A program made the position numbers and the translations under genes. Below are positions 8,055 to 43,233 of a stretch of 64,000 bases of DNA, in pieces. How positions within the stretch are numbered: the stretch's first letter is position 1; each line of letters starts with the position of its first letter. The notes beneath the pieces are model-generated. The model was given only the letters and a program-made list of their open reading frames with translations. It did no database searches and had not been told where the DNA came from. The stretch lies in NCBI GenBank assembly GCA_963786135.1, contig CAWAYF010000025.1, forward strand, positions 20,572 through 84,571. Reading direction: 5' to 3'. The DNA comes from an uncultured Verrucomicrobiae bacterium (GTDB lineage Bacteria; Verrucomicrobiota; Verrucomicrobiia; Chthoniobacterales; UBA10450).

Positions 8055-9146
8055 GTGACTTCCGTTTGGGACCATGCCAATCCGCAACTGCGTGGCCTTG
8101 CCGTTTATGAACCGGGCAAACCGATCGAAGAAACTGCGCGTGAGCTGGGGGTGCCGCCTCACGAAATCATCAAGTTAGCCTCCAACGAAAATCCGCTGGG
8201 ACCTTCTCCAAAGGCGATCGACGCGATTCGGATTGCTGCCGGCTCCGCCCAACTTTATCCGGATGGCGGGGGATTTCTTTTGCGCAATCGGCTCGCCATG
8301 AAACTCGGCTGCGGGTCCGAAAACATCATCCTGGGGAACGGTTCGAACGAAATCATTGAATTCGTCGGCCACGCTTTCCTGCAACCTGGTTACGATGCCA
8401 TTGCGTTCGAGCACGCCTTCGTAGCATACAAGCTCGTCGCCAACTTATTCGGGGCACGGGCCATTGAGATCCCGGCCTCGGAGTTTCAGCCGGATCTAGA
8501 CGCGTTGCTGGCGGCGATCACACCCAAAACGAAAGTGATTTTCATCGCGAACCCAAACAATCCAACCGGAGTATTGATTCCGCCGGGCAAGATCACAGAC
8601 TTTCTCGCGCGCGTACCTGAAAACATCGTAACCGTGCTCGACGAAGCATATTTTGAATTCCTCGACAACCCTCGCGACACCCTGGGTCACATTCGAAACC
8701 GAAATGTGATAATACTCCGCACGTTCTCGAAAATTCATGGCCTGGCCAGCTTGCGCGTGGGATACGGAATCGCCCGCCGGGAAATTATCGAGGTTCTACA
8801 AAAAACGAGGCAACCATTCAACGTCAATGGAATCGCCCAACTCGCCGCATTGGCGGCGCTCGAAGATGCAAATCACATTGCCGAAACGAAGCGTGTTGTC
8901 GACGCCGGCCGCGCGTTTTTGGAGAAGGAATTTGACGCGATGAAACTAAAATTTGTTCCGAGTGCCGCGAATTTTGTGTTCGTTCACGTGGGCAATGGTC
9001 CGGCGGTTTTTAAAAAGATGCTGGCCCGCAAAATCATCGTCCGTCCTCTCGTCGGATACGGATTGCCCGACTGGCTCCGGATAAGTGTCGGAACTATGGA
9101 ACAAAACAAACAATGCATCGCCGCGTTAAAGAAAGTACTCACATAG
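8055..9146 (+). CDS. hisC: histidinol-phosphate aminotransferase
   Basis: Intact 363-aa ORF with GTG start. It has class-II aminotransferase features, including LASNENPLGPSPKA and the SKIHGLASLRVGYG lysine region. Confidence 0.85.
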   Translation: MTSVWDHANPQLRGLAVYEPGKPIEETARELGVPPHEIIKLASNENPLGPSPKAIDAIRIAAGSAQLYPDGGGFLLRNRLAMKLGCGSENIILGNGSNEIIEFVGHAFLQPGYDAIAFEHAFVAYKLVANLFGARAIEIPASEFQPDLDALLAAITPKTKVIFIANPNNPTGVLIPPGKITDFLARVPENIVTVLDEAYFEFLDNPRDTLGHIRNRNVIILRTFSKIHGLASLRVGYGIARREIIEVLQKTRQPFNVNGIAQLAALAALEDANHIAETKRVVDAGRAFLEKEFDAMKLKFVPSAANFVFVHVGNGPAVFKKMLARKIIVRPLVGYGLPDWLRISVGTMEQNKQCIAALKKVLT

Positions 9147-10496
9147 AATCGACGTCCGGCGCTGATACCATCGCGGCGATATCTACTCCAGTCGGAGAAG
9201 GGGCCATCGCTCTTGTGCGAATCTCCGGCCGGAAAGCGATTGCGATAGCGGACAAGATTTTTCGGGGGAAAGAAAAAGCATCATGCTTCGGTTCGCATGT
9301 TCAACATCTGGGCGAGATCATTAACGATTCCGGAGATTTAATCGACGAGGCATTGATGTCGGTCCATCGCGCGCCCGCGAGTTACACCGGCGAAGATTTG
9401 GTCGAGATCAGTTGTCACGGGGGAACCCTGGTGACTGCTAAAGTTCTGGAAGCCTGTTTGCGCGCAGGTGCGCGCGGCGCTCGACCAGGCGAATTCACCG
9501 AGCGCGCATTTCTAAATGGCAAAATGGACCTGACCCAGGCCGAGGCGGTCATCGACCTGATTCGAGCGCGGACCGATATGGCACTGCGATCGGCAACTGA
9601 ACAGCTCGAAGGGAAGCTCGGAGAAAAAATCAGATCGATTCGAAATGCACTCGTTGACCTTCTCGCCCACATCGAAGCCTCGATCGATTTTCCGGAGGAA
9701 GGAATCGAGCCGGACGAGGGCGAACAATTGCGTGGCCGCCTGGATTCCATTCGAGAAGAGATTTCAGCCCTTCTTGCCACGGCGGACCAAGGCCGCATTT
9801 TGCGCGAAGGCGTTCGGACCGTGATTTACGGTGCGACCAACGCCGGCAAATCGAGTTTGCTAAACCGTTTGCTCGGCTACGAACGGGTGATCGTCAGCGA
9901 CACTCACGGAACAACTCGTGACACGATCGAAGAAACCGTGAATCTCCGCGGCGTTCCAGTGCGCCTCCTCGACACCGCTGGTTTGCGAACATCGACATCG
10001 GACATCGAACGCGAAGGAATTGCGCGTACGGAGCGCTCGTTGATGAATGCGGACCTGCGCCTTCACATCTTCGATCGCAACGCTGCCGCGCCCCGCGCAT
10101 TTCGAACAAGACGCGATCGATCGGAATGAAATTATCGTCCTAAACAAGAGCGACTTGCCTGAGCACAATGATTGGAAGAATTCCAGCGGGCTTCGGATTT
10201 CCTGTGTTACGGGAAAGGGCATGAAAGACCTCGAGGAAGAGATCATAGCCCGCCTCGGCAAACAGAATCTGCGGCCGGAAAACGCAGTCGCCATCAACCT
10301 GCGCCACCACGATTGTTTGCGCCGCGCGCTTGAAGCATGTGATCGTGCGCGACGCGGAATGGAGGAGGCATTTTCCGCAGAATGTTTCGCCGTCGATCTG
10401 AACGAAGCGCTCCGTGACGTTGGCGAAGTGATAGGCGAGACAGGCGTCGAGCAAATTTTGGATTCCGTCTTCAGTCAGTTTTGCATCGGCAAATGA
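9113..10496 (+). CDS. mnmE: tRNA modification GTPase MnmE, one frame break
   Basis: ORF 9113..10129 (DTIAAISTPVGEGAIALVRISG..., G-domain GATNAGKSSLLN, DTAGLR) continues in ORF 10047..10496, which ends in the family-typical FCIGK. The frame switch lies within 10047..10129, which contains a C4 run at 10091..10094. Confidence 0.85.
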
Positions 10497-14418: not shown

Positions 14419-15901
<1,483 letters not shown>

Positions 15902-15905
<4 letters not shown>

Positions 15906-17185
15906 GCGCGACCATCATTCGCAACGGCCGTATCATCGATCCGGCGAACAAGCGCGATGAGATCGGCGATCTTGCCATTGTCGACGGCAAGATCGCTGAA
16001 CTTTCCGCAATCTGCGATCCGAAATCCGCAATTGAAGAGATTGACGCAAAGGGTCTGATCGTCGCGCCGGGTTTGATCGACATCCACGTGCATCTGCGCG
16101 AGCCGGGATTTGGTCACAAGGAAACGATCGAGTCCGGCGCGCGCGCCGCCGCAGCCGGCGGATTCACGACGATTGTCTGCATGCCGAACACGTCGCCGGC
16201 CGCGGACAATCCGGCACGATCGCCTGGATCAAGGATCGCGCAGCCGAGGCGGCGTGCGTAAATGTTCTGCCAACCGGCGCGATCTCGAAAAATATCGCGG
16301 GCGAAGAACTGGCGCCGATCGGTTCGTTAGGCCAGGCCGGCGTGGTTGCGATCACCGACGACGGTCATTGCGTTCAAAATCACGAGTTGATGCGGCGCGC
16401 GGTCGAGTATGCGCGCATGGTTGGATTGCCGGTGCTCGATCATTGCCAGGATTACAATCTGGTCGGCAACGGCGTGGTTCACGAAGGCTACTGGAGCACG
16501 CTGCTCGGCTTGCCCGGCTGGCCGGCCGCGGGCGAAGAAGCGATCGTGATGCGCAACATTTTGCTGGCGGAACTTTGCGATCATCACATTCATTGCCAGC
16601 ACATCAGCGCGGCCGGCAGCGTGCGGCTGATTCGCGAAGCGCGAGCGCGCGGCGTGAAAATCAGCGGCGAAGTTTGTCCGCATCACATCGCGCTGACCGA
16701 CGAAGCGATCCAGAACTTCGATACGAATTACAAAATGAATCCGCCGTTGCGATCGCAGACCGACGTCGATGCAATCCTCGAAGGAATCGCCGACGGCACG
16801 TCTGTCGATCCTGTGCTCGGATCATGCGCCGCATGCCGAATTCGAAAAGGAAGTCGAGTTCGATCAGGCGCCGTTCGGAATCGTCGGACTCGAAACGGAG
16901 CTCGGTTTGTTCATCGATCTGCTCGTCCACAAGCATCGCAAGATCGACATTACGCGTTTGATCGAGATGTATACGATCGAACCGGCGAAACTCTTGAAGC
17001 TCGAAGCCGGAACATTATCGGTCGGCGCGCCGGCCGATGTCACGCTGATCGATCCGAATCTGGAATGGACCGTGCAAGTCGATCAATTTCAATCGCTCTC
17101 GCGCAATTCGCCGTTCGACGGATGGAAATTGAAAGGCCGCGCGGTGCGAACGATCGTCGGCGGGAAAACGGTTTGGAAATTGTGA
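15902..17185 (+). CDS. pyrC: dihydroorotase, two or more frame breaks
   Basis: [16 protein letters not shown]...[15 protein letters not shown]...TTIVCMPNT, then ITDDGHCV...CPHHIALTD...KMNPPLR (ORF 16342), then DHAPHA...FGIVGLET...[16 protein letters not shown] (ORF 16769..17185). Confidence 0.85.
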
Positions 17186-17256
17186 GCTGTGGTGGCAGCC
17201 ATCGCCGGCTGCAGATTTGAAGGCGATTGCAGGCGAGACGCCTGCCTTCACAGAGA

Positions 17257-17815: not shown

Positions 17816-19149
17816 CTAGGAAGACAGCGCAAATTTTCGGTCGATCAAGCGCTGCAGATGGTCCCCGATGGCCGGTTGATCGAGACGCTGAATGACTTCA
17901 TTCAAGAAGCCGGTGACGAGCAGACGCTGGGCGACTCTTGGCGGAATTCCGCGCGAGCGCAGATAAAACATTTCGTCTTCGTTGATCTGACCGGAGGTGG
18001 CGCCGTGGGTGCAACGGACGTTGTCGGCCAGAATTTCCAGACCGGGCATCGAGTTCGCTTCGGAATCGTCGCTCAAGAGAAGGTTGCGAACTTTTTGATA
18101 GGCATCGGTGAAATGCGCATGCGGTTCGACCCGGATCAGTCCGCCGAACGTGCAACGCGCCTTATCGTCGAGCGCATTCTTGTAAAGCAGATCGCTCGCG
18201 GTGCGCGGCGAAATGTGGTCCTGCAACGTGCGCGAATCGAATTCCTGATCGTTGGTCGCGACCGAAACCGCGAGCATGTCGCTGCGCGCGCCTTCACCGA
18301 CTAGCCGGCTCAGACCTTCGAATCGCGAGTAACGCGCTCCGAGATTCAAATTCAAACTCATCGCCGACGCGTCGTGATCGACAGTGGTCGAGTTCATTTG
18401 CAACGCGATCACTTTGCTGGCCCCATTCCTGCGCGCAAACATAAGTAACTTTCGCGCCCGGACCGGCGATCAGATCGTTCACGCCACAGGCGAAACCCGC
18501 GCGCTTGCTGATCACACGAGCGAAAATGTTCGATCACAGTCACTTTCGCCAGCTCGTCGGTAACGAGAAGCAAGTGCGGAAAGATCGACATGTTGTCGTG
18601 CGCGCAACCAGTGAAAGATCTCGATCGGCAGTTCGATCTCGACGCCACGCGGCACGAAAAGAAACGTTCCATTTGAAACCAGCGCCTCGATGCAGCGCGG
18701 CGAACTTCGCCGAACCGAGCGTTGCTTCGGTCGACATGAAATATTTTCGGAAAAGATCGGCGTGCTCGACCATCGCGCGCTCGAGCGGTTGAAAAATCAC
18801 GCCGCGCTTTTTCAGATCATCGGAGACGACGTTACGTTCGACCAGTTGATCGTTCGCGAAAATCATGCGACCGGCTACTTCGTCGAGACCGCTCGAGTAT
18901 TTCAGGATATTTTTGCGGTCGTCTTCCGAAAGTGGACCCGGAATTTCGAATGCGCGACAGATCGAGAAGATCGACATTGGAGAAACGCCAGGGCTGATCT
19001 TTGCGTATCGGACGCGGAATCGATTCGAATTTCTTCCAGGCCGCCAGCTGTTGTTCGCGAAACCAATCAGGCAAGTCACCGCGACTCAACCAGGCCCGAG
19101 AGGATCCCGAGAGGACTTTAGATTGCTTCTCCTGTGTAACTGACGGCAT
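17816..19149 (-). CDS. sufD: Fe-S cluster assembly protein SufD, three or more frame breaks
   Basis: The N-terminal piece is ORF 18832..19149 and the middle pieces are ORFs 18540..19079 and 18409..18672. The C-terminal piece, ORF 17816..18442, has the SufD-typical ...LSDDSEANSMPGLEILADNVRCTHGATSGQINEDEMFYLRSRGI. Confidence 0.8.
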
Positions 19150-19180
19150 GTCGATTTTTGCGGCAAACCGCCGCTCGGCG

Positions 19181-20594
19181 TTAACCGACCGAGCCTTCCA
19201 TCTCGAGCTCGATCAAACGCTTCAGTTCGACCGAATATTCCATCGGAAACTGGCGGACGAGATCGTTAACGAATCCGTTCACGCTCAAGCTCATCGCCTG
19301 CGCTTCGGTCAAACCGCGCTGCTGCATGTAGAAAATTTGTTCGGCGCTTACCTGGCGAGACGCTCGCTTCGTGCTGGACTGCGTTGCCGGTTCCGCGAAC
19401 GGTGATTGCCGGATAGGTGTCGGTCCGTGAAGTCGCGTTAATCAGGAGCGCGTCACATTCGGTGTTGTTTTTGCAATTCTTGAGATGCTTCGGCACGTGG
19501 ACGAGCCCGCGATAGGTCGCGCGGCCTGTGCCGATCGAGATCGACTTCGAGATGATGTTCGATGTCGTTTCGTCGGCGGCGTGAATCATTTTCGCGCCGG
19601 TGTCCTGGTGCTGGCCGTTGTTGGCCAGCGCGATCGAGAGCACTTCGCCGCGCGCTTTGCGGCCTTTCAGTACCACGCCCGGATATTTCATGGTCAGACG
19701 CGAGCCGATGTTGCAATCGATCCACTTGATCTCGGCGTCTTCGTGCGCGAGGCCGCGTTTGGTGACCAAGATTGAAAACGTTGGCCGACCAGTTCTGCAC
19801 GGTGATGTATTGGATCTTGGCGCCCTTGAGCGCGACCAGCTCGACCACCGCGCTGTGCAGCGTGGCGGTCTCGAACTTCGGCGCGGTGCAGCCTTCCATG
19901 TAAGTCACTTCGCTGCCTTCGTCGGCAATGATGAGCGTGCGTTCGAACTGGCCGAAATTTTCCGCGTTGATCCGGAAGTAAGCCTGCAGCGGATGTTTCA
20001 CCTTCACGCCGGGCGGCACGTAAATGAACGAGCCGCCGCTGAACACCGCCGCGTTGAGCGCGCTGAATTTGTTGTCGCCGATCGGGATGACCTTGCCGAA
20101 CCATTTCCGGAAAATTTCCGGATGATTTTTCAGTCCCTCGGTCGAACCGACGAAAATCACGCCCTGTTCGCCGACCGCTTTCTTGATGTTGGAATAGACC
20201 GCTTCGCTGTCGAACTGCGCTTCGACTCCGGCGAGAAATTTCCGTTCCTGCTCCGGAATGCCGAGCCGCTCGAATGTGCGCTTGATGTCTTCCGGCACTT
20301 CTTCCCAAGTGCGCTTCGGCTGCATCGCCGGACGCGAGGTAATAACGGATTTTGTCGAAATCGATCGCCTCGAGATCCTTGCTCGCCCAATGCGTCGGCA
20401 ATGGTTTCTCCAGAAAAGTTTTCAGACCGCGAAGACGGAATTCACGGACCCAATCCGGATCTTCTTTGACGTCGGAAATGTAGTGGATGGTTTTCTCGCT
20501 CAACCCGCGCCCGGCGTCCTTGGCGTAGGCGACGTCGTAATGAGAAATCGCCGATGCTGCGATCGATATTAACGGCTTTGGTTTCAGTTTTCAT
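19181..20594 (-). CDS. sufB: Fe-S cluster assembly protein SufB, three or more frame breaks
   Basis: Manual start MKTETKAVN... at 20594. The pieces are ORFs 19694..20503, 19453..20325 and 19266..19769, plus a terminal segment ...[45 protein letters not shown] ending at TAA 19181..19183. Confidence 0.85.
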
Positions 20595-22243: not shown

Positions 22244-22350
22244 GACGATTCCGGAGACTGAATTCAGGTCACTTCATGTAGTCGGACGCACCGCGGCGAC
22301 GACTAGTTGTCCTTTCACGTGACGTCGGCGTAGCCCGAAGATTTTTCGAG

Positions 22351-22369
22351 GTTATTCTTGGTTCGAATC
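22351..22369 (+). repeat. decayed third copy of the tRNA-Gln variable/T-arm segment
   Basis: GTTATTCTTGGTTCGAATC versus GTTATTCTTGGTTCGAGTC in the tRNA (one mismatch). The flanks do not fold into a tRNA. Confidence 0.5.
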
Positions 22370-22409
22370 GTTGCGCTTTCACCCAAAACGGACAATCTAG
22401 GTAGTCCGT

Positions 22410-22483
22410 TGCCCTGTGGTGTAATGGTAACACAGCGCCCTTTGGAGGCGTTATTCTTGGTTCGAGTCCAAGCGGGGCAGCCA
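22410..22483 (+). tRNA. tRNA-Gln (anticodon UUG)
   Basis: Hand-folded 74-nt cloverleaf: acceptor TGCCCTG/CGGGGCA (U1:A72, G73, encoded CCA), D arm GTGT-AATGGTA-ACAC, anticodon arm GCGCC-CTTTGGA-GGCGT, 4-nt variable loop, T arm CTTGG-TTCGAGT-CCAAG. Confidence 0.85.
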
Positions 22484-22752
22484 TCCAAATTCCCCTCTAA
22501 TTCTCGCGCTAGGAAGAAGATATGTCGCAAATGCGCGATTTGGACTTTGCGAATGGAAACGCACAAAAATGCAGTCTATTCGTCAACTATTCGGCACAAC
22601 ATTTTGAGCGGTGAAACCGTTTTGAACTCTGATGGAACGCGAACCTGTTCCAGCCTGCTGACTCGTTGAGTTGAAACAACTGATCCAGAATCAGTCAATC
22701 TTTCACAAATCCTTGCGCAAGTGGATCGATTAACGCCCGATCCCTCGAGAGA

Positions 22753-23001
22753 TTAGTCCAACGCGGCGGATAAACACTCCGCAATGCCTAGAAACGTCGC
22801 AAGCGCAGCCCACCGAGGAAGCGCGCAATCGTTGACGACGGCAGGCCGCCCTGCTGCCTGCCCGCTGAGCAGACGAACGTCGCGAATTACTTCAGTCACC
22901 CGGGCTTGCTTTCTTTCCGCGGCCAGCACGACGGTGACGACCATGATCACGGAAAGACTGACGACGGCAACGAGACTTAATTTTGGATGCAATGTTTTCA
23001 T
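22753..23001 (-). CDS. membrane-anchored FecR-N-terminal-like fragment protein
   Basis: 82 aa with a TM helix (LSLVAVVSLSVIMVVTVVLAA), followed by ARVTEVIRDVRLLSGQAAGRPAVVND. This repeats the start of the FecR-like domain of ORF 28405..29235 (ARVSQVFRDVSLLRSNAAASPASLND). The remainder is not FecR-like. Confidence 0.45.
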   Translation of the reverse strand: MKTLHPKLSLVAVVSLSVIMVVTVVLAAERKQARVTEVIRDVRLLSGQAAGRPAVVNDCALPRWAALATFLGIAECLSAALD

Positions 23002-23016
23002 TACGGTCGTCGCCTC

Positions 23017-23979
23017 CTAAAACTTGACCGAGAATTCAAGGGCACCGCCAGCGTTGCCCACATTGTAGTCAAACTGGTCCTGGTTCGAATCGCTGTGGGC
23101 AAACGAGCTGATGGCACTAATCCAACACCAGTCGGTGACGCGATAGGTGGCCGTGGCTGAAATGATTTCACTGATCTCGTTGCGGCCGTTCTGGTGGTAA
23201 TCGCGCACCACGAAACGGCCGACTGCTCCAATGGAAAATGCCCGAGTAAGATCGACTGAATAGCCGATGTAGCTCTCATAATCGTTGCGGCGCGGCGATT
23301 GATGGTCCGCGGCCACGCTGAGGTAGGTGTCTGCACCCACGGTGACTTGCTGGGCGCGGCCAAACCGAAATGGCAGCTCCGCGTCGAGAAGGATCTGGTG
23401 ATTGGAAAAAAATTCGTCGCCCAACCGGTCGCCGTTGGTGAGCCGATTGAAATCGTACCAGGCCCGTAACATTACATTGTGAAACTGCGGGAGAAAATAA
23501 GTGAGACCCGCCTGGCAATCGAGGCTGGCGAAGTCGAACGAGGTGTATTTGCCGTAGTAAAAAACCTGTTCCTGTGCGCCGAGATGGGCATAAAGATTCT
23601 GAGCAATTCTCGGATCGTAAAAAGCGGACACCAGCGGGGCAATTATCACGTCGCTGACCTCGCCGCTGTTTGTGAGCGCAACGTTTGATGTGTAAAAAAT
23701 CGGCGTCGAGAACGACGCGGTGAACGGCTGGTACGTTTCGGTGCGCTTAAGAATTTGCTGCTCGCCTAAATCAGCATCGTTGGGACTGGGCACCACCTGA
23801 TCGCCAATCACTCCACTGTTAGGCGCCGTAGACTGAACCAGTGGTTGGTTTTGGGCTTGCACCAGCGCCACCTGATTTAGCTGAACAATCTGCGCTCGGG
23901 CAGGAAGCAGGGATGCGATTAGAAACACCACGGCTGCCCACCCTGCGGAACAGAAAATTCTTAGGCGGAGCTTTGTCAA
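23017..23979 (-). CDS. outer-membrane beta-barrel protein (porin-like), family unassigned
   Basis: Signal peptide (AAVVFLIASLLPARAQ), an alternating amphipathic pattern rich in Tyr/Gly/Asp, and the C-terminal beta-signal ...GGALEFSVKF ending in Phe. Its ATG overlaps the stop of the giant ORF (ATGA). Confidence 0.6.
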   Translation of the reverse strand: MTKLRLRIFCSAGWAAVVFLIASLLPARAQIVQLNQVALVQAQNQPLVQSTAPNSGVIGDQVVPSPNDADLGEQQILKRTETYQPFTASFSTPIFYTSNVALTNSGEVSDVIIAPLVSAFYDPRIAQNLYAHLGAQEQVFYYGKYTSFDFASLDCQAGLTYFLPQFHNVMLRAWYDFNRLTNGDRLGDEFFSNHQILLDAELPFRFGRAQQVTVGADTYLSVAADHQSPRRNDYESYIGYSVDLTRAFSIGAVGRFVVRDYHQNGRNEISEIISATATYRVTDWCWISAISSFAHSDSNQDQFDYNVGNAGGALEFSVKF

Positions 23980-26900
23980 TGTGTCCCTGGAGCTATCGGC
24001 ATGGTCGAGGAGAATCGCCGGGCTCCGCTAATCGGTACGTTTTTTCTACCGCCAGGCAGAATCACTTGCTCGGTCGCGTTAGCAGAGGTAGGAGTGCGAG
24101 AACGAGCTGCTTGGTTCGGAACGTTGATCTTTCCGCCTGGACCGGGATTGAAGCCATTGAGCAGCGAAAGCAGCTGCCCGGAATTGGTCACGTTAATCGC
24201 ACCGCCTTTTGCGTTAACCGACGAAGTGACGCCACCGCTCGATGAGGTTTGATTACTTACCCCTGTCGTGCTGCCGGAAGAGGATGGGCTAGGAGGAGTG
24301 GCCCCGAACGTTGGTGCATTTCCCAGAGGTTGCGGGGTGTTGGCGCCATTGCCAGCAAACGTTCCCGTGGTAGAACCGTTTCCGCCAAAGCCAGTGTAAT
24401 TGGCGTTGTTAGTGTAGATGTTGGCCGCGCCGCCGTTGCCCGCGATAGTAACCGTGACCCCGGAATTAATCGTGATCCTATTAGCCGCCAGGTCCATTTC
24501 CGTGCCGCTGCTCAGCGTGACGTTGGCAACAAACTTCAGGAGCCCGTTGCTTCCGGGCGCGTACAGTTTGAGAAGTGTATCGGCCGAAATCGTGTTGCTG
24601 CCGCTCCCACCGATGATCAAGCTGCCGTTGGCGCCGAAAACCCCAGCTTGCACGACGTTGGCATGAATATCCGTGTTGTTGAACGTGATCGTGCCGTTCC
24701 CATCGATTGTATTGAAAAACGTTCCACCGATCTCATACGTCCCGCCGTTGAAATTGATAGCCGCTGATCCGGTCGGATCGGGACCAAGAATCTGAACCGT
24801 GGCCTCATTGTTAACCGTTGCGGTACCCGAGACATTCATGTTGATGGTTTCGTTTCCGCCGACAGAACCACCGCTGCTGCTATCAATCACCACGAACAAA
24901 TGATCGGCGTTAAGATTTCCCGTCGTTCCGACTTGGACGGTCGCATTCCCACCAATCGTGCCCCCGATATTCTCGATAAAGGCTTCGAAAGTGCTCCCAG
25001 CCGTCAAGCTTGCGGCGCTGACATCCACTGACGCGTCGGATTCGATCGCTCCCGGGTTGTTGAAGAGTCCGAAAAATAACAAGCCTCCGGTGCTAACGTC
25101 GCCGGTCGCATTGAGGGTCAACGCCGCCTTTCCTCCAATGGAACCGCCGTTGGAATTAACGATTTGAGCGACAAAATCCTGCGCGGCAGAGATGTTTGCC
25201 GTCTGAATGTTCACCGTGGCGTCAGAACCTATGACTCCTGCATTTGTGCCGCCCGCGTCGTTAAAAATTTCGAAATGCCCGTTCCCGGCTGCGTTATTAG
25301 CCCCTGTGCCCGGTTGTATGGTAAGGTTTCCAGACAGCGTAAAGTTAATTGCAGCGCTACCTTGAATCGTCCCACCGTTTTCGTTATCGATAATTGCGTT
25401 GAGGTTACCGGCAGTAGAAAAGTTAGTCGCGCTTACATTGATTGCCGCGTTGGAACCGATGAAGCCTCCATCATAATTGTCGATTTCGAAACGCGCATTC
25501 CCGACGTCGTTAACGTCTCCCGTAATATTAAATGTGATACCGCCTCCGGAACCAATGGTGCCCCCGGTGTCATTCTCAATGAGTCCCTCAAGGACGTGGC
25601 CGCACGACAAACTGCCGTCTACGCTTACGGAAATATTTCCTCCCGTTGTAATAGTGCCACCCTCATTGAAAATCCCAGTCGCAAAGGAGCCGAAATCTTC
25701 GGTGCCATTCGTTTGCACATTGTTGTCAAACGTCAGGTTGATATTGCCGCCGGTTCCTATCGTTCCGCCAGTTTCGCCTCCTGCGATGTTGCCATTATCC
25801 AGGAAAAAGTTGAGGCTGTGAAAATTTCCTGAAGTTTCCGTAACGTCGCCACCGAAACTCCCGCTAATATTTCCGCCAGTAGTGATCATGCCTCCATTGG
25901 CGTTGGCGATTTGCTCGGAAAACGTTCCGTTCAGCATGGTTGTCCCGGTAACATCCAACGTTACGTTGCCGCCGCTGTTGATCATGCCGCCAGTGGAATT
26001 GTCGACGAAAAGCGACAAGCTCGTGTTGGACGCGCCACTGATCGAGCTTGCCAAATTCAGGTTACCCGTCACCGTCACCGAACTATTTGCACCGGTTGTA
26101 ACTGTTCCACGGTTGGTCACCTGAAATAACGATGCCCCAGTTGTCGAACTGTCCGTGTAGTCGCCGCTGACATTTAATGTGACGCTAGCGCCATTTGCGA
26201 CCGTTACCCCCTGAGCCACAGCTGTAGTGAAGTTCAGCGGTCCATTTAAAGAGAATGCTCCGCTGATTTGCGCATTGAGATCGCCACCTTGAGTCGCCGC
26301 GTCAAATTCGTTCACGCTTAGCGAGCCGGCATAATCGAATTGAATCGATCCCGGCGCTGACAGCGAGATCGTGTTTGCACTTATCGTCACCGGATTGTTC
26401 AGCCCGATGTTCACGTCGCCCGCGCCGGTGATGGTCAGTAGATCGCAAGACAAAAACGCGCCATCGATCGTTATCGTTGGCGTCGAACCCGCGGGATCGT
26501 TTTGGTCCATCGTAATGGTACCGCGATCCGCCTCGATCGTTCCGTTAACAACAATGTCGGCACCCATGGTCGACAGGGTGATCGAACCGCCCGGTCCCGG
26601 CGCGTTCGCGTTGAGCAATGAAAGCAATTGCCCGTTTGCACCGACCGTGATTCCGGTGCCAGTGGTGAGATCACTTTGCAAATCAATCGTCCCGCCGCTG
26701 GCGCTTTGCCGTGGGGCCTCAGAATCATCGGACGAGACCTGGATAGTATCGTTTACGGTCACCATGCCTGCGGTCGATAGCAACGTGACCGAGCCGCCCG
26801 CGCCGCTGTAGATTCCGGGAGCGCTATTCAATCCTGTTGTCGCGGTAATGTCGGTACCGTTATTGGCCGTGATGTCACCAGTCGTGTTGACAATAAAGAC

Positions 26901-28364
26901 CCCGCCATCGCCGCCGTTGGCCGGGCCGCCCCCGCTGAAACTTCCAGCGTCAGCGCCGTTGAAGTTGGTGTTTCCGATTCCGGTCTCCGAATCGAAAGTA
27001 ATGGTGGTGGCGTTAATGGTCAGCTTGCCGCCCGAGGAGAGACCATCAATTCCGTCGAATTGGTTCCCGCTGTAATCGATCCCTGCCGGTGAGACGATGG
27101 AATTGACGTTAAAGGTCTCCTGCACGGCCGCGCCGCCGGGGCTTTCAACGAAAGCTCGGATTCCATTCGAGCCGACGGTTAGAACCCCGTTCGGCGCATC
27201 GATTGTTACAACATCGACACCGTTTGCCGTGATATTGCCGCCGGCGGTAACTGTCCCGAACGCCCCGAGCTGGCCGGCCACATCAATTGTCGTTCCAGCC
27301 GTCATGTTGCTTACGAGAGCGTTACCTCCAATGGAAATGAAAGTGCCCGCCGTCAGCGTACTGATTCTAACGTCGCTCGCGGCGGTAAAGGAACCGTCGC
27401 CTGTCACCGTGTTGCTCAGCGTATTATTAAGAACGTCGAGGCCGTGGACACTGATGTCGCCGACCGAAGTCAGCGTCAGATCGCCGGCAACGAAATCGAT
27501 GGTCGGCGCCTGAAATCCGCCGCTTCCGGCAGTGAACAAAACCGTGGCGGTGCCGAGATCGAACGTGGTTGGGTTGATGCTGCTCGTGATATTAATGGTG
27601 GTGCCCTGCGCCGTAAGGGACGTCCCAGTGAAGGTACTTGTGCCGCCATCGTCCGGATTGAGCGTGGCGTTCAGCGTGCCACCGGCGATAAAGGTAAGGT
27701 CGCCTGTCGGATTCGGAAATTGACGGGCATCGATATTCAGGTTGGAAAGCGATTCAATATCGATGGTTTGCGCGGTGATCATTCCCGTTCCTGCGAGAAA
27801 ATCGCCGCCGGAAAACGATCTGAATTCCGTCGTGGCGGTTATGTCCCCGTTGATCTGGACCGTGCCCTCAGAATCCAGATGCACCACATCGGCGCCTGAA
27901 ATCGGACTTGCCAGCGTCAGGTTGGAACCAGTGCCGCGCGCGTAAAAAGTGAGATGTGAAATACCGGAAAATGCGATATCGGGACCGAGAGTGATCGAGC
28001 CGCTTTGCGTTGCGATAAAAAGTCGATCGAGCCCAGCGAAGGTTAAGATCGTCCCGGCGGGCGCAGCTGAAGTAACATCCCCAACGCTAACCAAACCGAG
28101 GAAGGTTGTGGCGCCGCTCGGGATGGTAATGGTTGGGTCCCCGGTCAGCTCCAGACTTGAAAACTTGAATACCGCTACCGGGACCCCGTTCCCGTTCGTG
28201 TTGAAGAATTCCCCTATGGTCGTGTCGAACGAGCTCGTCGAACCAAAGAGGTAATCAAATTCAGACCCGTCCAACGCCGGGCCTCGGTAAATCTTGCCGA
28301 AATCAGTTGCGCCATTGGTCGTGATCAATGGATCGGTATTGATCTGCGTCCCGCTGGTTATCAC
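23976..28364 (-). CDS. giant Gly/Thr/Asn-rich repeat protein (predicted beta-helix/adhesin-like), no signal peptide at the annotated start
   Basis: Intact 1462-aa ORF (GTG start) with no Cys-rich or catalytic motifs. It has about a dozen degenerate units of roughly 40 aa (..DN.xGGxIxSGGNIxL..) and the motif GQLLSLLNxxxPGPGG twice. The frame stays open upstream into the 3' end of the FecR-like gene. Confidence 0.7.
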   Translation of the reverse strand: MITSGTQINTDPLITTNGATDFGKIYRGPALDGSEFDYLFGSTSSFDTTIGEFFNTNGNGVPVAVFKFSSLELTGDPTITIPSGATTFLGLVSVGDVTSAAPAGTILTFAGLDRLFIATQSGSITLGPDIAFSGISHLTFYARGTGSNLTLASPISGADVVHLDSEGTVQINGDITATTEFRSFSGGDFLAGTGMITAQTIDIESLSNLNIDARQFPNPTGDLTFIAGGTLNATLNPDDGGTSTFTGTSLTAQGTTINITSSINPTTFDLGTATVLFTAGSGGFQAPTIDFVAGDLTLTSVGDISVHGLDVLNNTLSNTVTGDGSFTAASDVRISTLTAGTFISIGGNALVSNMTAGTTIDVAGQLGAFGTVTAGGNITANGVDVVTIDAPNGVLTVGSNGIRAFVESPGGAAVQETFNVNSIVSPAGIDYSGNQFDGIDGLSSGGKLTINATTITFDSETGIGNTNFNGADAGSFSGGGPANGGDGGVFIVNTTGDITANNGTDITATTGLNSAPGIYSGAGGSVTLLSTAGMVTVNDTIQVSSDDSEAPRQSASGGTIDLQSDLTTGTGITVGANGQLLSLLNANAPGPGGSITLSTMGADIVVNGTIEADRGTITMDQNDPAGSTPTITIDGAFLSCDLLTITGAGDVNIGLNNPVTISANTISLSAPGSIQFDYAGSLSVNEFDAATQGGDLNAQISGAFSLNGPLNFTTAVAQGVTVANGASVTLNVSGDYTDSSTTGASLFQVTNRGTVTTGANSSVTVTGNLNLASSISGASNTSLSLFVDNSTGGMINSGGNVTLDVTGTTMLNGTFSEQIANANGGMITTGGNISGSFGGDVTETSGNFHSLNFFLDNGNIAGGETGGTIGTGGNINLTFDNNVQTNGTEDFGSFATGIFNEGGTITTGGNISVSVDGSLSCGHVLEGLIENDTGGTIGSGGGITFNITGDVNDVGNARFEIDNYDGGFIGSNAAINVSATNFSTAGNLNAIIDNENGGTIQGSAAINFTLSGNLTIQPGTGANNAAGNGHFEIFNDAGGTNAGVIGSDATVNIQTANISAAQDFVAQIVNSNGGSIGGKAALTLNATGDVSTGGLLFFGLFNNPGAIESDASVDVSAASLTAGSTFEAFIENIGGTIGGNATVQVGTTGNLNADHLFVVIDSSSGGSVGGNETINMNVSGTATVNNEATVQILGPDPTGSAAINFNGGTYEIGGTFFNTIDGNGTITFNNTDIHANVVQAGVFGANGSLIIGGSGSNTISADTLLKLYAPGSNGLLKFVANVTLSSGTEMDLAANRITINSGVTVTIAGNGGAANIYTNNANYTGFGGNGSTTGTFAGNGANTPQPLGNAPTFGATPPSPSSSGSTTGVSNQTSSSGGVTSSVNAKGGAINVTNSGQLLSLLNGFNPGPGGKINVPNQAARSRTPTSANATEQVILPGGRKNVPISGARRFSSTMPIAPGTH

Positions 28365-28404
28365 GTATGGATTGGGCGACGTTATCGTGGGCAGTGGCCC
28401 AAAC

Positions 28405-29235
28405 TTACTTGGCGGGGCGGTCGGTGACGGCGATGCCGACGGTCCGGGCGTGGGCGGTGGTTATGTTAGGATTTGAAGTCGTGTTTACGGAGATTACATC
28501 GACCAGGTCTTTTAATGGTGGCTGAGTTGTTCCAGGGTTTAATTGCGCCGTCTGCTGCTCATCGATCACCTGCAAAATCAGCGGTAGATTGGCCAGATCA
28601 GGAAAGCCAACGATCAACTGCGATGTCTCGATCACGGTTTTGACATTAAATGTTCCCTTCACCAAGTGACCGTTGGCGTCGAGGGTTACCATTTCTCCGC
28701 CGTGCAAAGTAACTGCCTTTTCCGGATGACCGATCGGATAAAAAGTGCCGACGCCTTCCAGGACCATGAACTTTGCCGGCGGCCCGGTTCCAAACATGGC
28801 GGTACCGCCACTGACAGCTGCTGTAGTCACACTGGAGATGATCTTAGCGGAAGCAGCTCCAGGCGGGACCTCCAGAAGGACAGTTCCGTGCTCCACACGA
28901 AGCTGGCGAGTTCCCTCGTTAAGACTGAAAACCGTGTTTTCGCCAAGACGCGTAATCGTCAGGTCGCCAAATGTCAGCTCTGCTCTTGATTGTCCCCCGG
29001 TTCGTACGGCCATTCCCAGCCTGACTTCATCGTTTAACGAAGCAGGACTCGCTGCCGCGTTTGACCGCAACAAACTTACGTCGCGAAAAACTTGAGAAAC
29101 TCGTGCGCTTTGCAGCGGTGACGCCCCGTCTGCCGCTGATAATGCGAACACGCATGCGGAAAGTGCCGAATAGCGGATCAATAACCGCCGCTTCAAAGCA
29201 TACCTGTGCCCACGAGTCGTGTCTGCGGTTTTCAA
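28405..29235 (-). CDS. FecR-domain protein with signal peptide/anchor
   Basis: LLIRYSALSACVFALSAADGA, then a FecR-like core: ARVSQVFRDVSLL...VRTGGQSRAELTFGDLTITRLGENTVFSLNEGTRQLRVEHGTVLLEV...AAVSGGTAMF. Confidence 0.7.
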   Translation of the reverse strand: MKTADTTRGHRYALKRRLLIRYSALSACVFALSAADGASPLQSARVSQVFRDVSLLRSNAAASPASLNDEVRLGMAVRTGGQSRAELTFGDLTITRLGENTVFSLNEGTRQLRVEHGTVLLEVPPGAASAKIISSVTTAAVSGGTAMFGTGPPAKFMVLEGVGTFYPIGHPEKAVTLHGGEMVTLDANGHLVKGTFNVKTVIETSQLIVGFPDLANLPLILQVIDEQQTAQLNPGTTQPPLKDLVDVISVNTTSNPNITTAHARTVGIAVTDRPAK

Positions 29236-29597
29236 GGTCGAACCTCCTCCGAAGGCCGAAGTATGGCTGAACCAGACTTGGGCGTCTTACCATTTGCGGG
29301 ATCAACAATCGAAACTGACGAGCCGCTTCCCGAAATTACGAGGTTGGTTTCGATCAACTTGCTGTTCGATTTCTCTTCTTGCTGGCTTTGGATTATTTCA
29401 TTTCCTATCCTGACCGGATCGCCAACTAAAGCAGCCCGGCGCCCGGCGTCGTTGGTCACCAGATCCGCTTCTTTGACGATGGCTGTAACTCGTACCTCTT
29501 GAGAAGTGGCGCTTGCGATTGAAAACGGAAAGATGGGCGGAGCAAGAAGTAACCCCGTCAGCGCGAAACATCTGCGAATTCTGGGACGTGTACCCAC
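29232..29597 (-). CDS. small secreted FecR-N-terminal-like protein
   Basis: 121 aa with a signal peptide (CFALTGLLLAPPIFPFSIASA), then VRVTAIVKEADLVTNDAGRRAALVGDPV, similar to the FecR-like starts of the two other genes. ATGA overlap with the next gene. Confidence 0.5.
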   Translation of the reverse strand: MGTRPRIRRCFALTGLLLAPPIFPFSIASATSQEVRVTAIVKEADLVTNDAGRRAALVGDPVRIGNEIIQSQQEEKSNSKLIETNLVISGSGSSVSIVDPANGKTPKSGSAILRPSEEVRP

Positions 29598-30058
29598 AAA
29601 AAGGGACGCCTTTTTTGGGGTTTAGATATTGATAAGTCAAGCTTAAGCCTGGTGGCGTGACACCGGAGATGCAGACTAAGTTTTTTTGCTGTGTGCCACT
29701 GATTACCTAGGCAAGATCAAAAGCGTATTCGTCCGCTTACCGGGGGTCAAAGATTCGCGCGAATGATCGACAATAGCGGCTGGCATAGCTGCTGCAATCT
29801 TGTGATCGGGGTTGACTTTGAGTTGTGTTCCGAAACGCGGCGCAGAATCAAAACACGCACCGGCCTCAATGTTAGGCACAGCTGGCCTAAAGACGATGCC
29901 ATCCTTATGGCAGCTGATTTTACGCGATTAACAAATCTGCAATACGTAAGTGACTGGACCTGAGGGCCGATGGCCCTTGCCGTCTCCGCCGTTAATTGGT
30001 GTTGGCACGAATGCTGGTAATAGCGGACTCGAAGTGAGTGCACCGAAAAACAAAAAAT

Positions 30059-30234
30059 ATGCGACGAGCGGGAATCCAAAACATTCCAGCTCCAAACGCA
30101 AAAAGGAAAGATTGATCCGCCTCGATGATCTGATCCCAAAACAGAACGTCACCGGCGGTCGTCAATTTTTGTTCGGCGTCACTGACGCAGTACAAAACAC
30201 AAAAACAATAAACAACCCAAAACAAGAAAACTGA
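30059..30234 (+). CDS. candidate small peptide 1 with ...DDLIPKQNVTGG leader-like segment; needs one A-run repair or a TTG start
   Basis: The frame of ORF 29950..30234 encodes ...KRKKERLIRLDDLIPKQNVTGG-RQFLFGVTDAVQNTKTINNPKQEN. The only ATG (30059) is in the +1 frame, and it would join if the A5 run at 30100..30104 were A6. Confidence 0.35.
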
Positions 30235-30235
30235 T

Positions 30236-30424
30236 ATGTCGAAGAAAACCAAGAAAAACATCAAAGTTCGTGACCTCAACCCAAAGAAAGACGCTAAAGG
30301 CGGCGGCGTGGCTGTCTCCGGCGGCGGTGCTGCCGTCTCCGGCCATCCCTCCCTAAGCGGCAAAGGCCCGGCCCCACTGGGCGGAGGAGCGTCGGTGAGT
30401 GGCAAAGGTCCAAGCACCAATTGA
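30236..30424 (+). CDS. candidate small peptide 2: Lys-rich KGG leader plus Gly/Ser/Ala-rich core
   Basis: MSKKTKKNIKVRDLNPKKDAKGG-GVAVSGGGAAVSGHPSLSGKGPAPLGGGASVSGKGPSTN, followed by an 8-bp GC hairpin (30435..30442 / 30458..30465). Confidence 0.5.
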   Translation: MSKKTKKNIKVRDLNPKKDAKGGGVAVSGGGAAVSGHPSLSGKGPAPLGGGASVSGKGPSTN

Positions 30425-30507: not shown

Positions 30508-30664
30508 ATGAAAAAAGCCAATAAGAAAATCAACGTTCGTGATATGAAGCCGAGGAAAAATCCCAAAGCTGGCGGCATCGGAAAGCCCGCTCCGCAAGGC
30601 ATCGGCAAACCCGCCCCGCAAGGCATCGGCCACCCCGCCGCAAGGCACGCCGAATGTGAACTAA
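30508..30664 (+). CDS. candidate small peptide 3: Lys-rich KAGG leader plus (GIGKPAPQ)x3 core; frame broken in the third repeat unit
   Basis: MKKANKKINVRDMKPRKNPKAGG-IGKPAPQGIGKPAPQGIGHPA.. The third 24-nt unit reads GCCG where unit 2 has GCCCCG. When repaired, the ORF ends ...PQGTPNVN at TAA 30662..30664, just before a terminator. The unrepaired track ORF runs to 30825. Confidence 0.5.
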
Positions 30665-30682
30665 GATTTACTCGGCAGTCGC

Positions 30683-30719
30683 GCCGCGCCCCGGTTAATT
30701 CCGCGGCGCGGCTTTTTTT
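30683..30719 (+). terminator. intrinsic terminator after peptide 3
   Basis: GCCGCGCC (30683..30690) pairs with GGCGCGGC (30705..30712) and is followed by T7 (30713..30719). Confidence 0.7.
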
Positions 30720-30747
30720 GTACTTTCGGTATCCGAAGCTGGCGCCG

Positions 30748-30915
30748 TTATGGGAACAGACCCCGGATTTTCTTTGCCCGCATTACGCGCTCGACGCCGA
30801 TAGCCATCGCGGCGGTGCGATGTGAAATCTTGTGCGCCTTGGCGCGCTTGATCACCTGGGTGAAGGAGTGCTCCAGGATTCGGAACAACTCCTTGTTGGG
30901 CTCGAACAATCCCAT
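30748..30915 (-). pseudogene. orphan 3' fragment of a Glu/Leu/Phe/Val dehydrogenase-family gene
   Basis: Manual translation gives MGLFEPNKELFRILEHSFTQVIKRAKAHKISHRTAAMAIGVERVMRAKKIRGLFP*. This matches the conserved C-terminal helix region of small GDHs (..F..V....K.I..R.AA...A..RV..A...RG). An in-frame stop lies about 45 nt upstream, and no N-terminal part is present. Confidence 0.55.
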
Positions 30916-31237
30916 GCGCACGCGCGAGGATAGTCGTTCACGGTTGTTTTCTACGGTTGGTCAATTTTTTGGAGCAAAACTGCGCAAAATCCCGACACGT
31001 GGTGCAAACCACTCCGATGATCGACACCTCTGAAAAACAGGCTATGCAAATGCGCGAAAAACTGCGCAAAAACTCGTTAGGCAATTACAAATCAGGTGCT
31101 CTATCAGGCTTAGACAAGGCCCTAGGGCAAGCTCGGCGGGGACAAAGCATAGGACAGGCGTTTTACAGCGATGGAGCAGGTTCCCTGGGTGGATACGGGG
31201 GTCAATTCTTAAATTCACCGCCCGAACAACGCCTCGG

Positions 31238-31277
31238 GGAGGCGTTATTCTTGGTTCGAGTCCAAGCGGGGCAGCCA
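31238..31277 (+). repeat. partial tRNA-Gln copy (3' 40 nt), putative attR
   Basis: GGAGGCGTTATTCTTGGTTCGAGTCCAAGCGGGGCAGCCA is identical to 22444..22483. Weaker similarity extends about 12 nt further 5'. No acceptor 5' strand or D arm lies upstream. Confidence 0.8.
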
Positions 31278-31443
31278 ATTATCTGCTCGGCGCGGGACTC
31301 GGCAGCGGAAACGCAAATGTTGCCGACGGTGAAGCGGTCGAGGGGACGCTCGCCGATGGCGATGCTGCCGATGGACTCGGCGACGCCGTGGGCGTCGGAG
31401 TCGGCGGCGGCGGAATAATATTTTCCCAGTGATGCAGGGGCAC

Positions 31444-31588
31444 GGTCGCGCCGCCGATTTCCTCAACTAATTTCTGACAGCGTTCCTGGAGCTTGTCTAA
31501 ATTTGGCGGCCAACGGGAGGCGGTCGCGCCGCCGATTTCCTCAACAGTTTCTGACAGCGTTCCTGGAGCTTGTCTAAATTTGGCGGCC
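31444..31588. repeat. 78-bp tandem duplication at the 3' end of the GH75-like gene
   Basis: GGTCGCGCCGCCGATTTCCTCAAC..TTTCTGACAGCGTTCCTGGAGCTTGTCTAAATTTGGCGGCC occurs at 31444.. and 31522... The copies differ by one substitution and one 1-nt indel (CTAAT versus CAGT). Confidence 0.8.
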
Positions 31589-32703
31589 CAAACGGCGTGT
31601 CAGCCGTTCCGGGAAAAATCAAATACGTCACTTTCAATTCGCTGACCGGTCGACTGTAAGGCGTGGATTGGGGATTGATTTCTTTTGCGATCCGAAACGA
31701 GGCTTCGCCAACTTTATCGTTCGGTCCGATGTCTCCAACAATCGCCGGATAAATTCCATCACCGAAAACGACAAGCGCGTAGTCGCCAGTCTTCGCTCCA
31801 TCCCGGTCGTGCGCGAACGCGCCCGGAATCACGATGTAGGGATCGGTCGTGCCGATGAGGAAGCTGTATTTCTGGAGCGTAGTCACTTCGGCCCGCAATT
31901 GCGTGATCGCGTTTCGTAAATCGCGTTTGCGATCCGGCGGAGTTGTCTTTGCATTGAATTCGTCTTCGGCCTTTTTCAACCGGTCTTCGGTGGCGGCGAG
32001 ATACGGATTTGGCGCCGGCGTTTTCTTCGACCAACGATAACTGGTGAACGGCTTGAAGTTCGTCGGCGCACCGGTCCCGACCGGCATCCGGTCGCTATCC
32101 GAACCATCACAATCGACATCCATGTCGGCTTGAAGCAGGAGCGCTTTGCGATGGGTTTGGGGGTGCTGCAATTGCAGGATTGTCTGACAATCGAAGAAGT
32201 TGTGACGTGAGAGCAGCAGATCCAGCCGGCTAAGATTCTCGCGCAGCATTCTGAGCTTCGTGTCGTAGAGCTGAGCGAATAACGGCGAGACCGGCTCGGC
32301 CGGGAGCATCGTTGAGAGCCCGGGCAATAGCTCCGGCAGTTTGGGATTCACCTTCGCCAGTTCTTCGATGGTTCGATTCGGCGTCGGCACGCGCGCCTTC
32401 AATTTTAACTCAATTACGTAACTTTCGGGATCGACGCGCTCAGTGGTTGCATCTGCTCCTGGAGTCGGCTCAACAGTCGAATGCAAAGTGATGCCGCTGA
32501 ATAATCGGCCGGTATCAAGTTTACCGGCAATCACCGGCGGTCGCGTGGGCGACGGCTCCGGAGTCGGGGTCGGCGAAGTTTCTCGCGGCGGCGAAGTATT
32601 GCAAACGCTCCTGCGAAATCCAGCGATACAGAATCAAAGCGAAAATTATCGCCGCCAGGAGAACGACCAGTCTTCGCAACGTCCGCAAACTCAGGTTTGC
32701 CAC
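31497..32703 (-). CDS. membrane-anchored glycoside hydrolase family 75 (chitosanase-like) domain protein; frame break near the 5' end and possibly near the 3' end
   Basis: ORF 31497..32534 contains ADMDVDCDGSD, PYIVIPG and GDYALVVFGDGIYPAIVGDIGPNDKVGEASFRIA, which match GH75 signatures. ORF 32521..32703 supplies a TM anchor (RLVVLLAAIIFALILY). With a 1-nt repair in the duplicated block, the frame runs on to TAA 31279..31281. Confidence 0.65.

Positions 32704-41854: not shown

Positions 41855-43233
<1,379 letters not shown>

Follow-up and report, generated by a model that had tools for sequence, protein, structure and literature searches.

In the bacterial adhesin LapA, a retention module tethers the protein in its outer-membrane pore (bioRxiv 10.1101/198937), and in the Marinomonas adhesin MpIBP the periplasmic RIN domain (structure 5ix9) is a beta-sandwich too large for the TolC pore, which it therefore blocks, keeping the adhesin in place (PMC5550230). 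Here we examine a gene group in a 64,000-nucleotide (nt) stretch of contig CAWAYF010000025.1 (the window, meaning the whole stretch) that combines FecR-like modules, a giant beta-helix protein and a small outer-membrane barrel. The initial annotation read it as a five-gene system around a giant protein lacking a signal peptide. Comparison with related loci indicates that the region is a damaged copy of a cluster of four gene kinds found across Chthoniobacterales (Verrucomicrobiota). What looks strange in this instance comes from one frameshift and the remnants of two genes in an assembly of poor quality; the envelope cluster of which it is a copy is real, conserved and undescribed, and made from known parts. 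As suspected at the outset, literature and family searches found no named system or paper with this architecture.

An open reading frame (ORF) listing returns five ORFs, all on the minus strand, from 29597 down to 22753, exactly where the initial annotation had placed them:
29232..29597, minus strand: upA remnant ORF, 121 amino acids (aa), GTG start
28405..29235, minus strand: FecR ORF, 276 aa, TTG start
23976..28364, minus strand: giant ORF, 1462 aa, GTG start
23017..23979, minus strand: barrel ORF, 320 aa, TTG start
22753..23001, minus strand: dnB remnant ORF, 82 aa, ATG start

The 4-nt overlaps and the gaps of 40 and 15 nt between these ORFs are as first described, but the overlap letters are TTGA, not ATGA; an ATGA overlap does occur in relatives, for example in L004 (L numbers denote related loci and P numbers homologous proteins). 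The N-terminal motif A/V-R-V-S/T-x-V/I-x-R/K-D/E-V/A-x-L-L/V, reported for three of the products, is seen in all three and is the start of the FecR-like module that each of these genes carries. The FecR domain of the 276-aa ORF is also confirmed (PF04773, E 1.8e-8, 35.2 bits against a Pfam cut-off of 24). Pfam has no family for the 1462-aa giant (E<=1) or for the 121-aa and 82-aa ORFs, and NCBIfam gives nothing above threshold for the five products. A promoter and terminator scan of 22300-30300 found sites no more numerous than in shuffled sequence. The five ORFs amount to four genes, three of them incomplete, and the barrel gene is the sole intact cluster member in the window.

Judged from homologue alignments, the 276-aa and 1462-aa ORFs are the halves of one gene split in its linker:
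28405..29235, minus strand: 5' part of the FecR-beta-helix gene, with signal peptide and FecR-like module (Pfam, homologue identity)
28440..28460, minus strand: frameshift site in the Pro/Ser/Thr linker (tblastn, frame translation, DNA alignment)
23976..28433, minus strand: 3' part of the gene, with the remaining linker and the beta-helix (homologues align across the junction)

The FecR domain lies in the same chain in 130 of 135 homologues of the 1462-aa ORF, and the closest of these (P0002, P0003 and P0004) align over 100% of the query, which they exceed in length by about 350 aa; P0002, with 1819 aa, is 61% identical to it. Residues 1-257 of the single-chain P0002 and P0004 are in turn 83-85% identical to the 276-aa ORF. 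When the homologues are aligned to the window by tblastn, their first ~255 residues fall in the frame of the 276-aa ORF and the remainder in the giant's frame from 28433, with the switch between 28459 and 28433. The giant's frame stays open 5' of its GTG and there encodes PPPTPGPSASPSPTAPPSKFGPLPTITSPNPYV, matching the Pro/Ser/Thr linker of the homologues. The fusion in homologues, the frame switch and the linker upstream of the GTG together assign the signal peptide and FecR module of the 276-aa ORF to the giant, which is thus not signal-less as first supposed.

At the frameshift the window has ATAACCACCGCCCACGCC where L001 has ATAACCGGCACGCC, a net shift of +1. DNA alignment places the lesion at ATAACC[ACCGCC]CACGCC, with 4 extra nt relative to L001, and the window linker also has an 18-nt in-frame deletion beyond the 4-nt insertion. 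Programmed frameshifting was considered and rejected, given that there is no slippery heptamer and that the insertion and deletion relative to L001 lie in low-complexity linker. The split is probably an assembly indel rather than a true mutation, because SufB, glutamate dehydrogenase and thymidylate synthase (ThyA) in the window are also frameshifted:
19080-20503 (minus strand), 41855-43233 (minus strand), 54820-56211 (plus strand) and 14419-17220 (plus strand): frameshift-broken housekeeping genes

SufB (about 19080-20503, minus strand) changes frame three times, and the shifts do not fall in long homopolymers, which fits random indel errors of a long-read metagenome-assembled genome (MAG). 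Glutamate dehydrogenase is split into three ORFs within its Pfam domains, and ThyA ends at profile position 115 of 266. A pyrR/pyrB/pyrC-like region of the window is likewise in fragments. The indel-rich appearance of the assembly is reason to distrust any single frameshift in the window.

The two small ORFs are, by the same kind of comparison, what is left of two FecR-only genes:
29232..29597, minus strand: remnant of FecR-only gene A ('upA'; tblastn against L001, blastn against L003)
22753..23001, minus strand: remnant of FecR-only gene B ('dnB'; tblastn against L001 and L002, DNA comparison with L003)

In L001 a 315-aa FecR protein is encoded 5' of the giant and a 271-aa FecR protein 3' of the barrel. 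Residues 34-108 and 255-315 of the former match the 121-aa ORF contiguously and in one frame (tblastn), and against L003, the closest relative (86% nucleotide identity), 441 nt (L003 5748-6188) are cleanly missing from the window (blastn). The 121-aa ORF is thus a FecR-only gene A of ~270-330 aa with an internal, in-frame 441-nt deletion (junction near 29390) that has removed the module core; what it retains is the signal peptide, ~40 residues from the start of the FecR-like module, and the C-terminal tail, which is conserved. The 82-aa ORF, initially called a membrane protein, is matched by the L001 271-aa and L002 278-aa proteins at residues 1-61 only (tblastn); its DNA homology to L003 ends at 22829, and its last 21 codons are unrelated. 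It is the signal peptide and first ~60 residues of a ~270-aa FecR-only gene B.

A literal reading of the locus, with five coupled products and a truly signal-less giant exported by an unknown route, can point to the source annotation, in which the 276-aa and 1462-aa ORFs are separate proteins, and to L003, where the helix gene is also fragmented. It would have to accommodate the 130 of 135 fused homologues, the linker that continues in the giant's frame 5' of the GTG, the similar frameshifts in housekeeping genes of the window, and the demonstrable origin of the 121-aa and 82-aa ORFs as pieces of longer genes. This five-gene reading, and with it the architecture first proposed, is largely refuted, and we regard it as improbable in the extreme. 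In L003 itself, the barrel of which is 92% identical to that of the window, the helix gene (6341-10004) is about 1.6 kb shorter than the window's and lies in ORFs of 813, 257 and 169 aa, reflecting either another assembly prone to errors or a helix gene that repeatedly decays and changes length.

The intact cluster was defined from 31 loci, found by scanning one genome per species with barrel-derived patterns, and the ORFs in all of them were searched by seeds and profiles for cluster members. Nearly all are labelled as Chthoniobacterales or Verrucomicrobia MAGs. Wherever the flanks are long enough, the barrel is accompanied by FecR-module genes on its strand, which bears out the co-oriented, packed unit seen at first and, for FecR-module genes and barrel, the co-occurrence across genomes that was proposed as its check. 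One barrel homologue (L028, 58% identity) lies on a 3.6-kb contig binned as Candidatus Methylomirabilota, which is probably misbinned Chthoniobacterales. In a profile search of 1.84 billion representative proteins the barrel has 560 relatives at E<=1e-3, nearly all of 300-340 aa; clustered at 50% identity, the family amounts to ~560 protein clusters. Genes of four kinds make up the full cluster, on one strand and with 4-nt stop/start overlaps:
Gene kind 1: secreted FecR-only protein A, ~270-330 aa
Gene kind 2: signal peptide, FecR-like module (~190 aa), Pro/Ser/Thr linker and beta-helix, in one or more copies
Gene kind 3: 12-strand outer-membrane barrel, ~320 aa, its periplasmic N-terminal extension disordered but conserved
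Gene kind 4: secreted FecR-only protein B, ~265-285 aa

The order is A, helix, barrel, B in L001, L003, L004, L021 and the window, and barrel, A, helix (~670 aa), B in L008, L011, L013, L015 and L017-L019; L006 and L029 have A, helix and barrel and no B gene. Helix proteins range from ~600 to 2440 aa among loci, and L002 and L027 carry the helix gene as two or three tandem paralogues. In relatives the cluster occupies a fixed chromosomal site, flanked by SecDF-S21-GT2 or Rho-RNaseD at one end and by (LactB)-LysM/TPR-ThiF-L35-NDH2 at the other; it is not island cargo there, in contrast to the island setting given in the initial annotation.

The helix protein was modelled in the form of the homologue P0024 (1024 aa), with a mean predicted local distance difference test (pLDDT) score of 87. 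The model has a FecR-like beta domain (residues 39-181), helices (195-228), a disordered segment (228-257) and an uninterrupted beta-helix (273-1007). In Foldseek searches the module is matched by 4m0n and 6ovk_R, both periplasmic domains of the FecR/PupR kind (E 3e-5 to 1e-4), and its first ~65 residues superpose on 5ix9 with a target-normalised TM-score of 0.75 and a root-mean-square deviation of 1.7 A over 65 columns (E 0.09). NF033682 (retention_LapA) is weakly matched by 6 of 14 modules over their first ~65 residues (best E 0.0017, ~15-17 bits against a cut-off of 50), and the best NCBIfam matches are Lsa33 (9 of 14 modules) and LipL45 (4 of 14), all sub-threshold. Searches of PDB sequences with the giant, the full-length profile A2 and the module profile A3 gave nothing meaningful. 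A FecR-type Gly-Thr self-cleavage, an idea taken from FoxR, was also set aside, given that the conserved motif is G-x-T (GGT, GTT or GFT by paralogue) and not a fixed G-T dipeptide.

The linker that joins module and helix has no fewer than 40 residues in any of the proteins (median 51, maximum 147) and is rich in P/S/T/G/A. The linkers of P0002-P0030 and of the window (~28470-28530) share a small conserved motif, PP.KD.[IV]D..SQ, and the FecR-only B proteins end in a similar one, ..DPT..D.IDQ. The giant has about a dozen 31-36-aa repeats of the form [FI]xx[ND]N..GG[TSM]I.. at roughly 24795-26027, visible only at the protein level; no tandem repeats were found in the DNA of the gene. The linker of at least 40 residues, the variation in helix length and the tandem paralogues are consistent with a surface-exposed product.

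An AlphaFold2 model of the barrel, built from 51 aligned sequences, has 12 strands at a pLDDT of ~85-90, a C-terminal Phe and no POTRA domain, in agreement with the small POTRA-less barrel ending in ...EFSVKF that was originally described. The protein carries its own signal peptide, and residues 22-80 are low-confidence or disordered in the model. Within this predicted-disordered N-terminal extension lie the invariant residues P66, N67, D68, D70, G72 and Q74 (SPNDADLGEQQILKR), which suggests a periplasmic binding or docking peptide:
23743-23790: most invariant barrel stretch, residues 64-79, SPNDADLGEQQILKR, N-terminal to the first strand

Foldseek comparison with solved structures gives no specific family for the barrel. 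Its matches are generic (porins, OmpG, COG4313, KdgM, FapF and autotransporter beta-domains, with 12-14 strands), the best overlap being with the COG4313 protein 4rl8 at a target-normalised TM-score of 0.63, and a PDB sequence search gave nothing meaningful. Against BBP2_2 (PF10082) the window barrel reaches 18.7 bits where the cut-off is 23.7, at profile positions 257-366 of 378 only, and 40 of 51 barrel homologues match this family weakly at E<0.01 (best 4.1e-7). The novelty first claimed for the combination holds in that no described system is matched, and is qualified by the barrel's distant relation to a known Pfam family; the barrel is at best a distant BBP2_2 relative.

That relation, and the GT2 and LysM/TPR genes that flank the cluster in nearly all loci, would fit a polysaccharide or envelope-glycan machinery, in which the barrel is a BBP2_2-type export porin and the helix binds or modifies glycan (as in the pair of AlgG and AlgE), together with GT2 and LysM/TPR. 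Parallel beta-helices are also common among polysaccharide lyases and epimerases. However, the BBP2_2 match covers the last third of the profile below cut-off, the flanking genes are on the other strand or in separate operons, and known polysaccharide porins have 16-18 strands, compared with the 12 modelled here. For the helix, Foldseek gives no lyase, epimerase or pectin-lyase-fold match, and Pfam and NCBIfam give no carbohydrate-active domain. We consider a glycan machinery distinctly unlikely.

The barrel resembles the beta-domains of EstA, EspP, Hbp, BrkA and NalP, and FapF, about as well as it does other 12-14-strand barrels, which brings in a split autotransporter or a system like two-partner secretion (TPS): the barrel would export the beta-helix, which is then released or loosely attached, and the modules would be chaperones or targeting domains rather than a plug. 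Where the helix gene precedes the barrel gene, the ATGA overlap mimics the order of passenger and beta-domain, and in L002 as many as three helix genes share a single barrel gene. Against this, Pfam gives no autotransporter, TPS or POTRA signal, and HMW1/EtpA TPS domains and autotransporter passengers match the helix at E 0.5-1 only. In many loci the barrel gene comes first, and the barrel protein begins with a signal peptide itself and lacks a linker helix that would join it covalently to a passenger. This explanation is unlikely in our view.

For the intact cluster we tentatively favour a surface fibre held in the barrel by a periplasmic FecR-like head, a reading that we rate somewhat short of an even chance. 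All cluster products have Sec-type N-termini, and all would be exported by Sec. The barrel would then insert in the outer membrane and the beta-helix would be displayed at the cell surface, while the FecR-like head would stay folded in the periplasm as a stopper or anchor, like the RIN plug of the LapA/MpIBP adhesins, with the flexible linker crossing or docking on the barrel. The N-terminal peptide of the barrel and the module-only proteins A and B may bind or compete at one periplasmic interface, and A and B, with the barrel peptide, could act as assembly factors or regulators. The window copy is probably not able to perform this mechanism fully, because A and B are incomplete. A bolder form of the fibre model is a new Sec-dependent route of giant-fibre display, likened to a 'split inverse autotransporter', in which a FecR-fold plug is followed by a linker threading a monomeric 12-strand barrel and head-only paralogues control occupancy or release; we hold this to be rather unlikely.

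Several points weigh against a fibre held in the barrel. The link from module through linker to barrel is a proposed one. The lumen of a 12-strand barrel is narrow, and that such a barrel holds or translocates a polypeptide is our presumption. The similarity of the modules to retention modules is below threshold and may only reflect the small beta-sandwich shared by FecR domains. For the beta-helix, Foldseek against solved structures yields nothing significant (TPS domains and the passengers of autotransporters come up only at E about 0.5-1), and its surface location is therefore deduced from size and variability only. For the genomic part, what speaks against an assembly error as the source of the split is that within 6.8 kb the window cluster has one frameshift, far fewer per kb than SufB; a frameshift-density heuristic along the window is too noisy to compare assembly quality between cluster and flanks. 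Gene order is not fixed, with the barrel first in many loci. Finally, with 10-kb flanks L014, L016 and L024 have a barrel and FecR-only genes and no beta-helix gene, so that the invariant pair is the barrel and a FecR-only (module) protein, not the barrel and a fibre. These three clusters occupy the canonical site. In L014 an unrelated 1650-aa ORF lies just upstream on the opposite strand.

The invariant pair of barrel and FecR-only protein would suit a sensory or regulatory pathway, in which the modules dock on the barrel's N-terminal peptide as FecR does on FecA and a signal is relayed without a sigma factor. The FecR/PupR periplasmic fold of the module and the conservation of the periplasmic peptide fit such a pathway too. 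The proteins have signal peptides only, however, with no cytoplasmic anti-sigma domain or transmembrane helix; no extracytoplasmic function (ECF) sigma factor and no TonB-dependent or other transducer lies beside the cluster in any locus; and a beta-helix of 600-2400 aa would have no role in the pathway. We regard signalling of this kind as very unlikely. Taking window and relatives together, the genes beside the cluster are SecDF, S21, GT2, Rho, RNaseD, LactB, LysM/TPR, ThiF and tRNA-Gln. The absence of an ECF sigma factor, TonB-dependent receptor, POTRA/TPS and autotransporter beta-domain, noted at first from the window, holds in Pfam and NCBIfam searches of the window and of the relatives' neighbours, and as noted then there is no signal for a type I secretion system (T1SS), for type IX secretion or of the PEP-CTERM kind.

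The window copy is also out of place, given that none of the canonical cluster neighbours occurs anywhere in the 64-kb window. It lies instead between a tRNA gene and a partial copy of that gene:
22410..22483, plus strand: tRNA-Gln, anticodon TTG (ARAGORN; Rfam tRNA 62.3 bits), putative island boundary
31226..31277, plus strand: direct repeat of the tRNA-Gln 3' half (repeat search), other putative island boundary

The repeat (22432-22483 against 31226-31277) is 52 nt long and 90% identical, with the final 40 nt identical, and neither ARAGORN nor Rfam recognises a tRNA at 31226-31277. A tRNA with a 3' repeat is the classic footprint of integration at a tRNA. The tRNA link proposed initially is thus supported by a confirmed tRNA-Gln and the 52-nt repeat of its 3' half, although it does not extend to the relatives, where the cluster is not island cargo. 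No integrase or mobility gene was found, the non-cluster ORFs between the repeats having no Pfam or NCBIfam matches, and there is no compositional shift, with a guanine-plus-cytosine content of 0.53-0.56 between the repeats, the same as in the flanks. We infer that the window copy was relocated or acquired and lost parts of genes A and B.

Other features of this interval were observed alongside. The T-arm segment of tRNA-Gln occurs a third time (GTTATTCTTGGTTCGAATC, 95% identical) at 22351-22369, ~60 nt upstream of the tRNA gene, and hints at repeated integration or recombination events there. A 77-nt unit in nearly perfect tandem duplication (31443-31588, 1.9 copies, 97% matches), adjacent to the repeat of the tRNA fragment, spans the 3' end of a GH75 chitosanase-like gene (31497-32534, minus strand) and may be a rearrangement scar or an assembly artefact. 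Two small plus-strand ORFs (30236-30424 and 30508-30825) begin with a Lys-rich, leader-like stretch (MSKKTKKNIKVRDLNPKKDAKGGG; MKKANKKINVRDMKPRKNPKAGG) followed by Gly/Pro-rich repeats, with a 24-nt tandem repeat at 30574-30647. They match no Pfam or NCBIfam family, and their DNA is ~78% identical to L006 17541-18586, ~7 kb downstream of the L006 barrel; they could be precursor-peptide-like genes.

The Chthoniobacterales abound in soil, and their envelope biology is almost without experimental study. With FecR-fold modules, a small barrel and a hypervariable beta-helix at a fixed site, the cluster is a candidate for their main surface fibre or adhesin system. Should the module indeed serve to anchor proteins in a pore of the outer membrane, many 'orphan' proteins with a FecR domain, among them LipL45 and Lsa33 of Leptospira, could be accounted for, and the widespread non-signalling FecR domains would gain a structural anchoring role with an evolutionary tie to the LapA/MpIBP retention modules of T1SS adhesins. 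For genome scanning, the window is a caution that signal-less giants or tiny motif-sharing ORFs can stem from frameshifts and remnants in an error-prone assembly.

Among described systems, the FecR/PupR anti-sigma factors (PF04773; 6ovk, 4m0n) have the periplasmic FecR fold in common with the cluster, by sequence and structure, and their partnership with a barrel bearing an N-terminal periplasmic extension is plausible here too. In contrast to them, the cluster has no cytoplasmic anti-sigma domain or transmembrane helix, the signal peptide running straight into the module, and it has no ECF sigma factor, TonB-dependent transducer or STN-like subdomain. Each cluster encodes instead three secreted proteins that carry the module, and in one of these the module is joined to a huge beta-helix. 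Leptospira LipL45, Lsa33 and Lsa19 are likewise secreted FecR-domain proteins without a sigma/anti-sigma role and are annotated as adhesins, although the modules score far below the cut-offs of these families. Those proteins are small and are not known to have a beta-helix fusion or a dedicated barrel partner. The window barrel is akin to the BBP2_2 barrels, to whose profile its C-terminal third fits, and to the 12-strand COG4313/Phenol_MetA_deg barrels, through its structural overlap with 4rl8. It differs in being shorter than the BBP2_2 profile (320 aa compared with 378 positions), in a conserved N-terminal peptide particular to it, and in its setting among FecR genes. The repeats of the giant, [FI]xx[ND]N..GG[TSM]I, recall the GGA[ILV]/FxxN repeats of chlamydial Pmp proteins, with no Pfam Chlam_PMP match at E<=1.

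Compared with the LapA/MpIBP adhesins, whose pore is TolC-like (LapE), the cluster would likewise combine a giant repetitive surface protein with a small periplasmic N-terminal beta-sandwich, and in both a flexible Gly- or Pro-rich segment would span the outer-membrane pore. The cluster proteins differ in having Sec signals, no RTX repeats and no C-terminal T1SS signal, and none of the LapB, LapC, LapE, LapG and LapD genes is present in or beside the cluster at the loci examined. The pore candidate is a monomeric 12-strand barrel rather than a TolC trimer, and the body is a beta-helix rather than immunoglobulin-like repeats, with sequence similarity below family thresholds. With the type V systems (Va, Ve and Vb) the cluster has in common that the gene of a passenger-like, beta-helical protein exported by Sec adjoins that of a 12-strand barrel. 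Here, however, barrel and passenger are separate polypeptides and gene order varies, and Pfam and NCBIfam give no signal for autotransporter, TPS, POTRA or LysM-intimin families in the giant or the barrel. Type Vb differs further in that TpsB is a 16-strand Omp85-type barrel with POTRA domains, compared with 12 strands and a disordered 55-aa N-terminus here, and in that the helix has no TPS domain (HMW1/EtpA TPS at Foldseek E 0.66-1.0 only). Closest by domain order are the inverse autotransporters (type Ve), with a periplasmic N-terminal domain, a linker and an exposed body.

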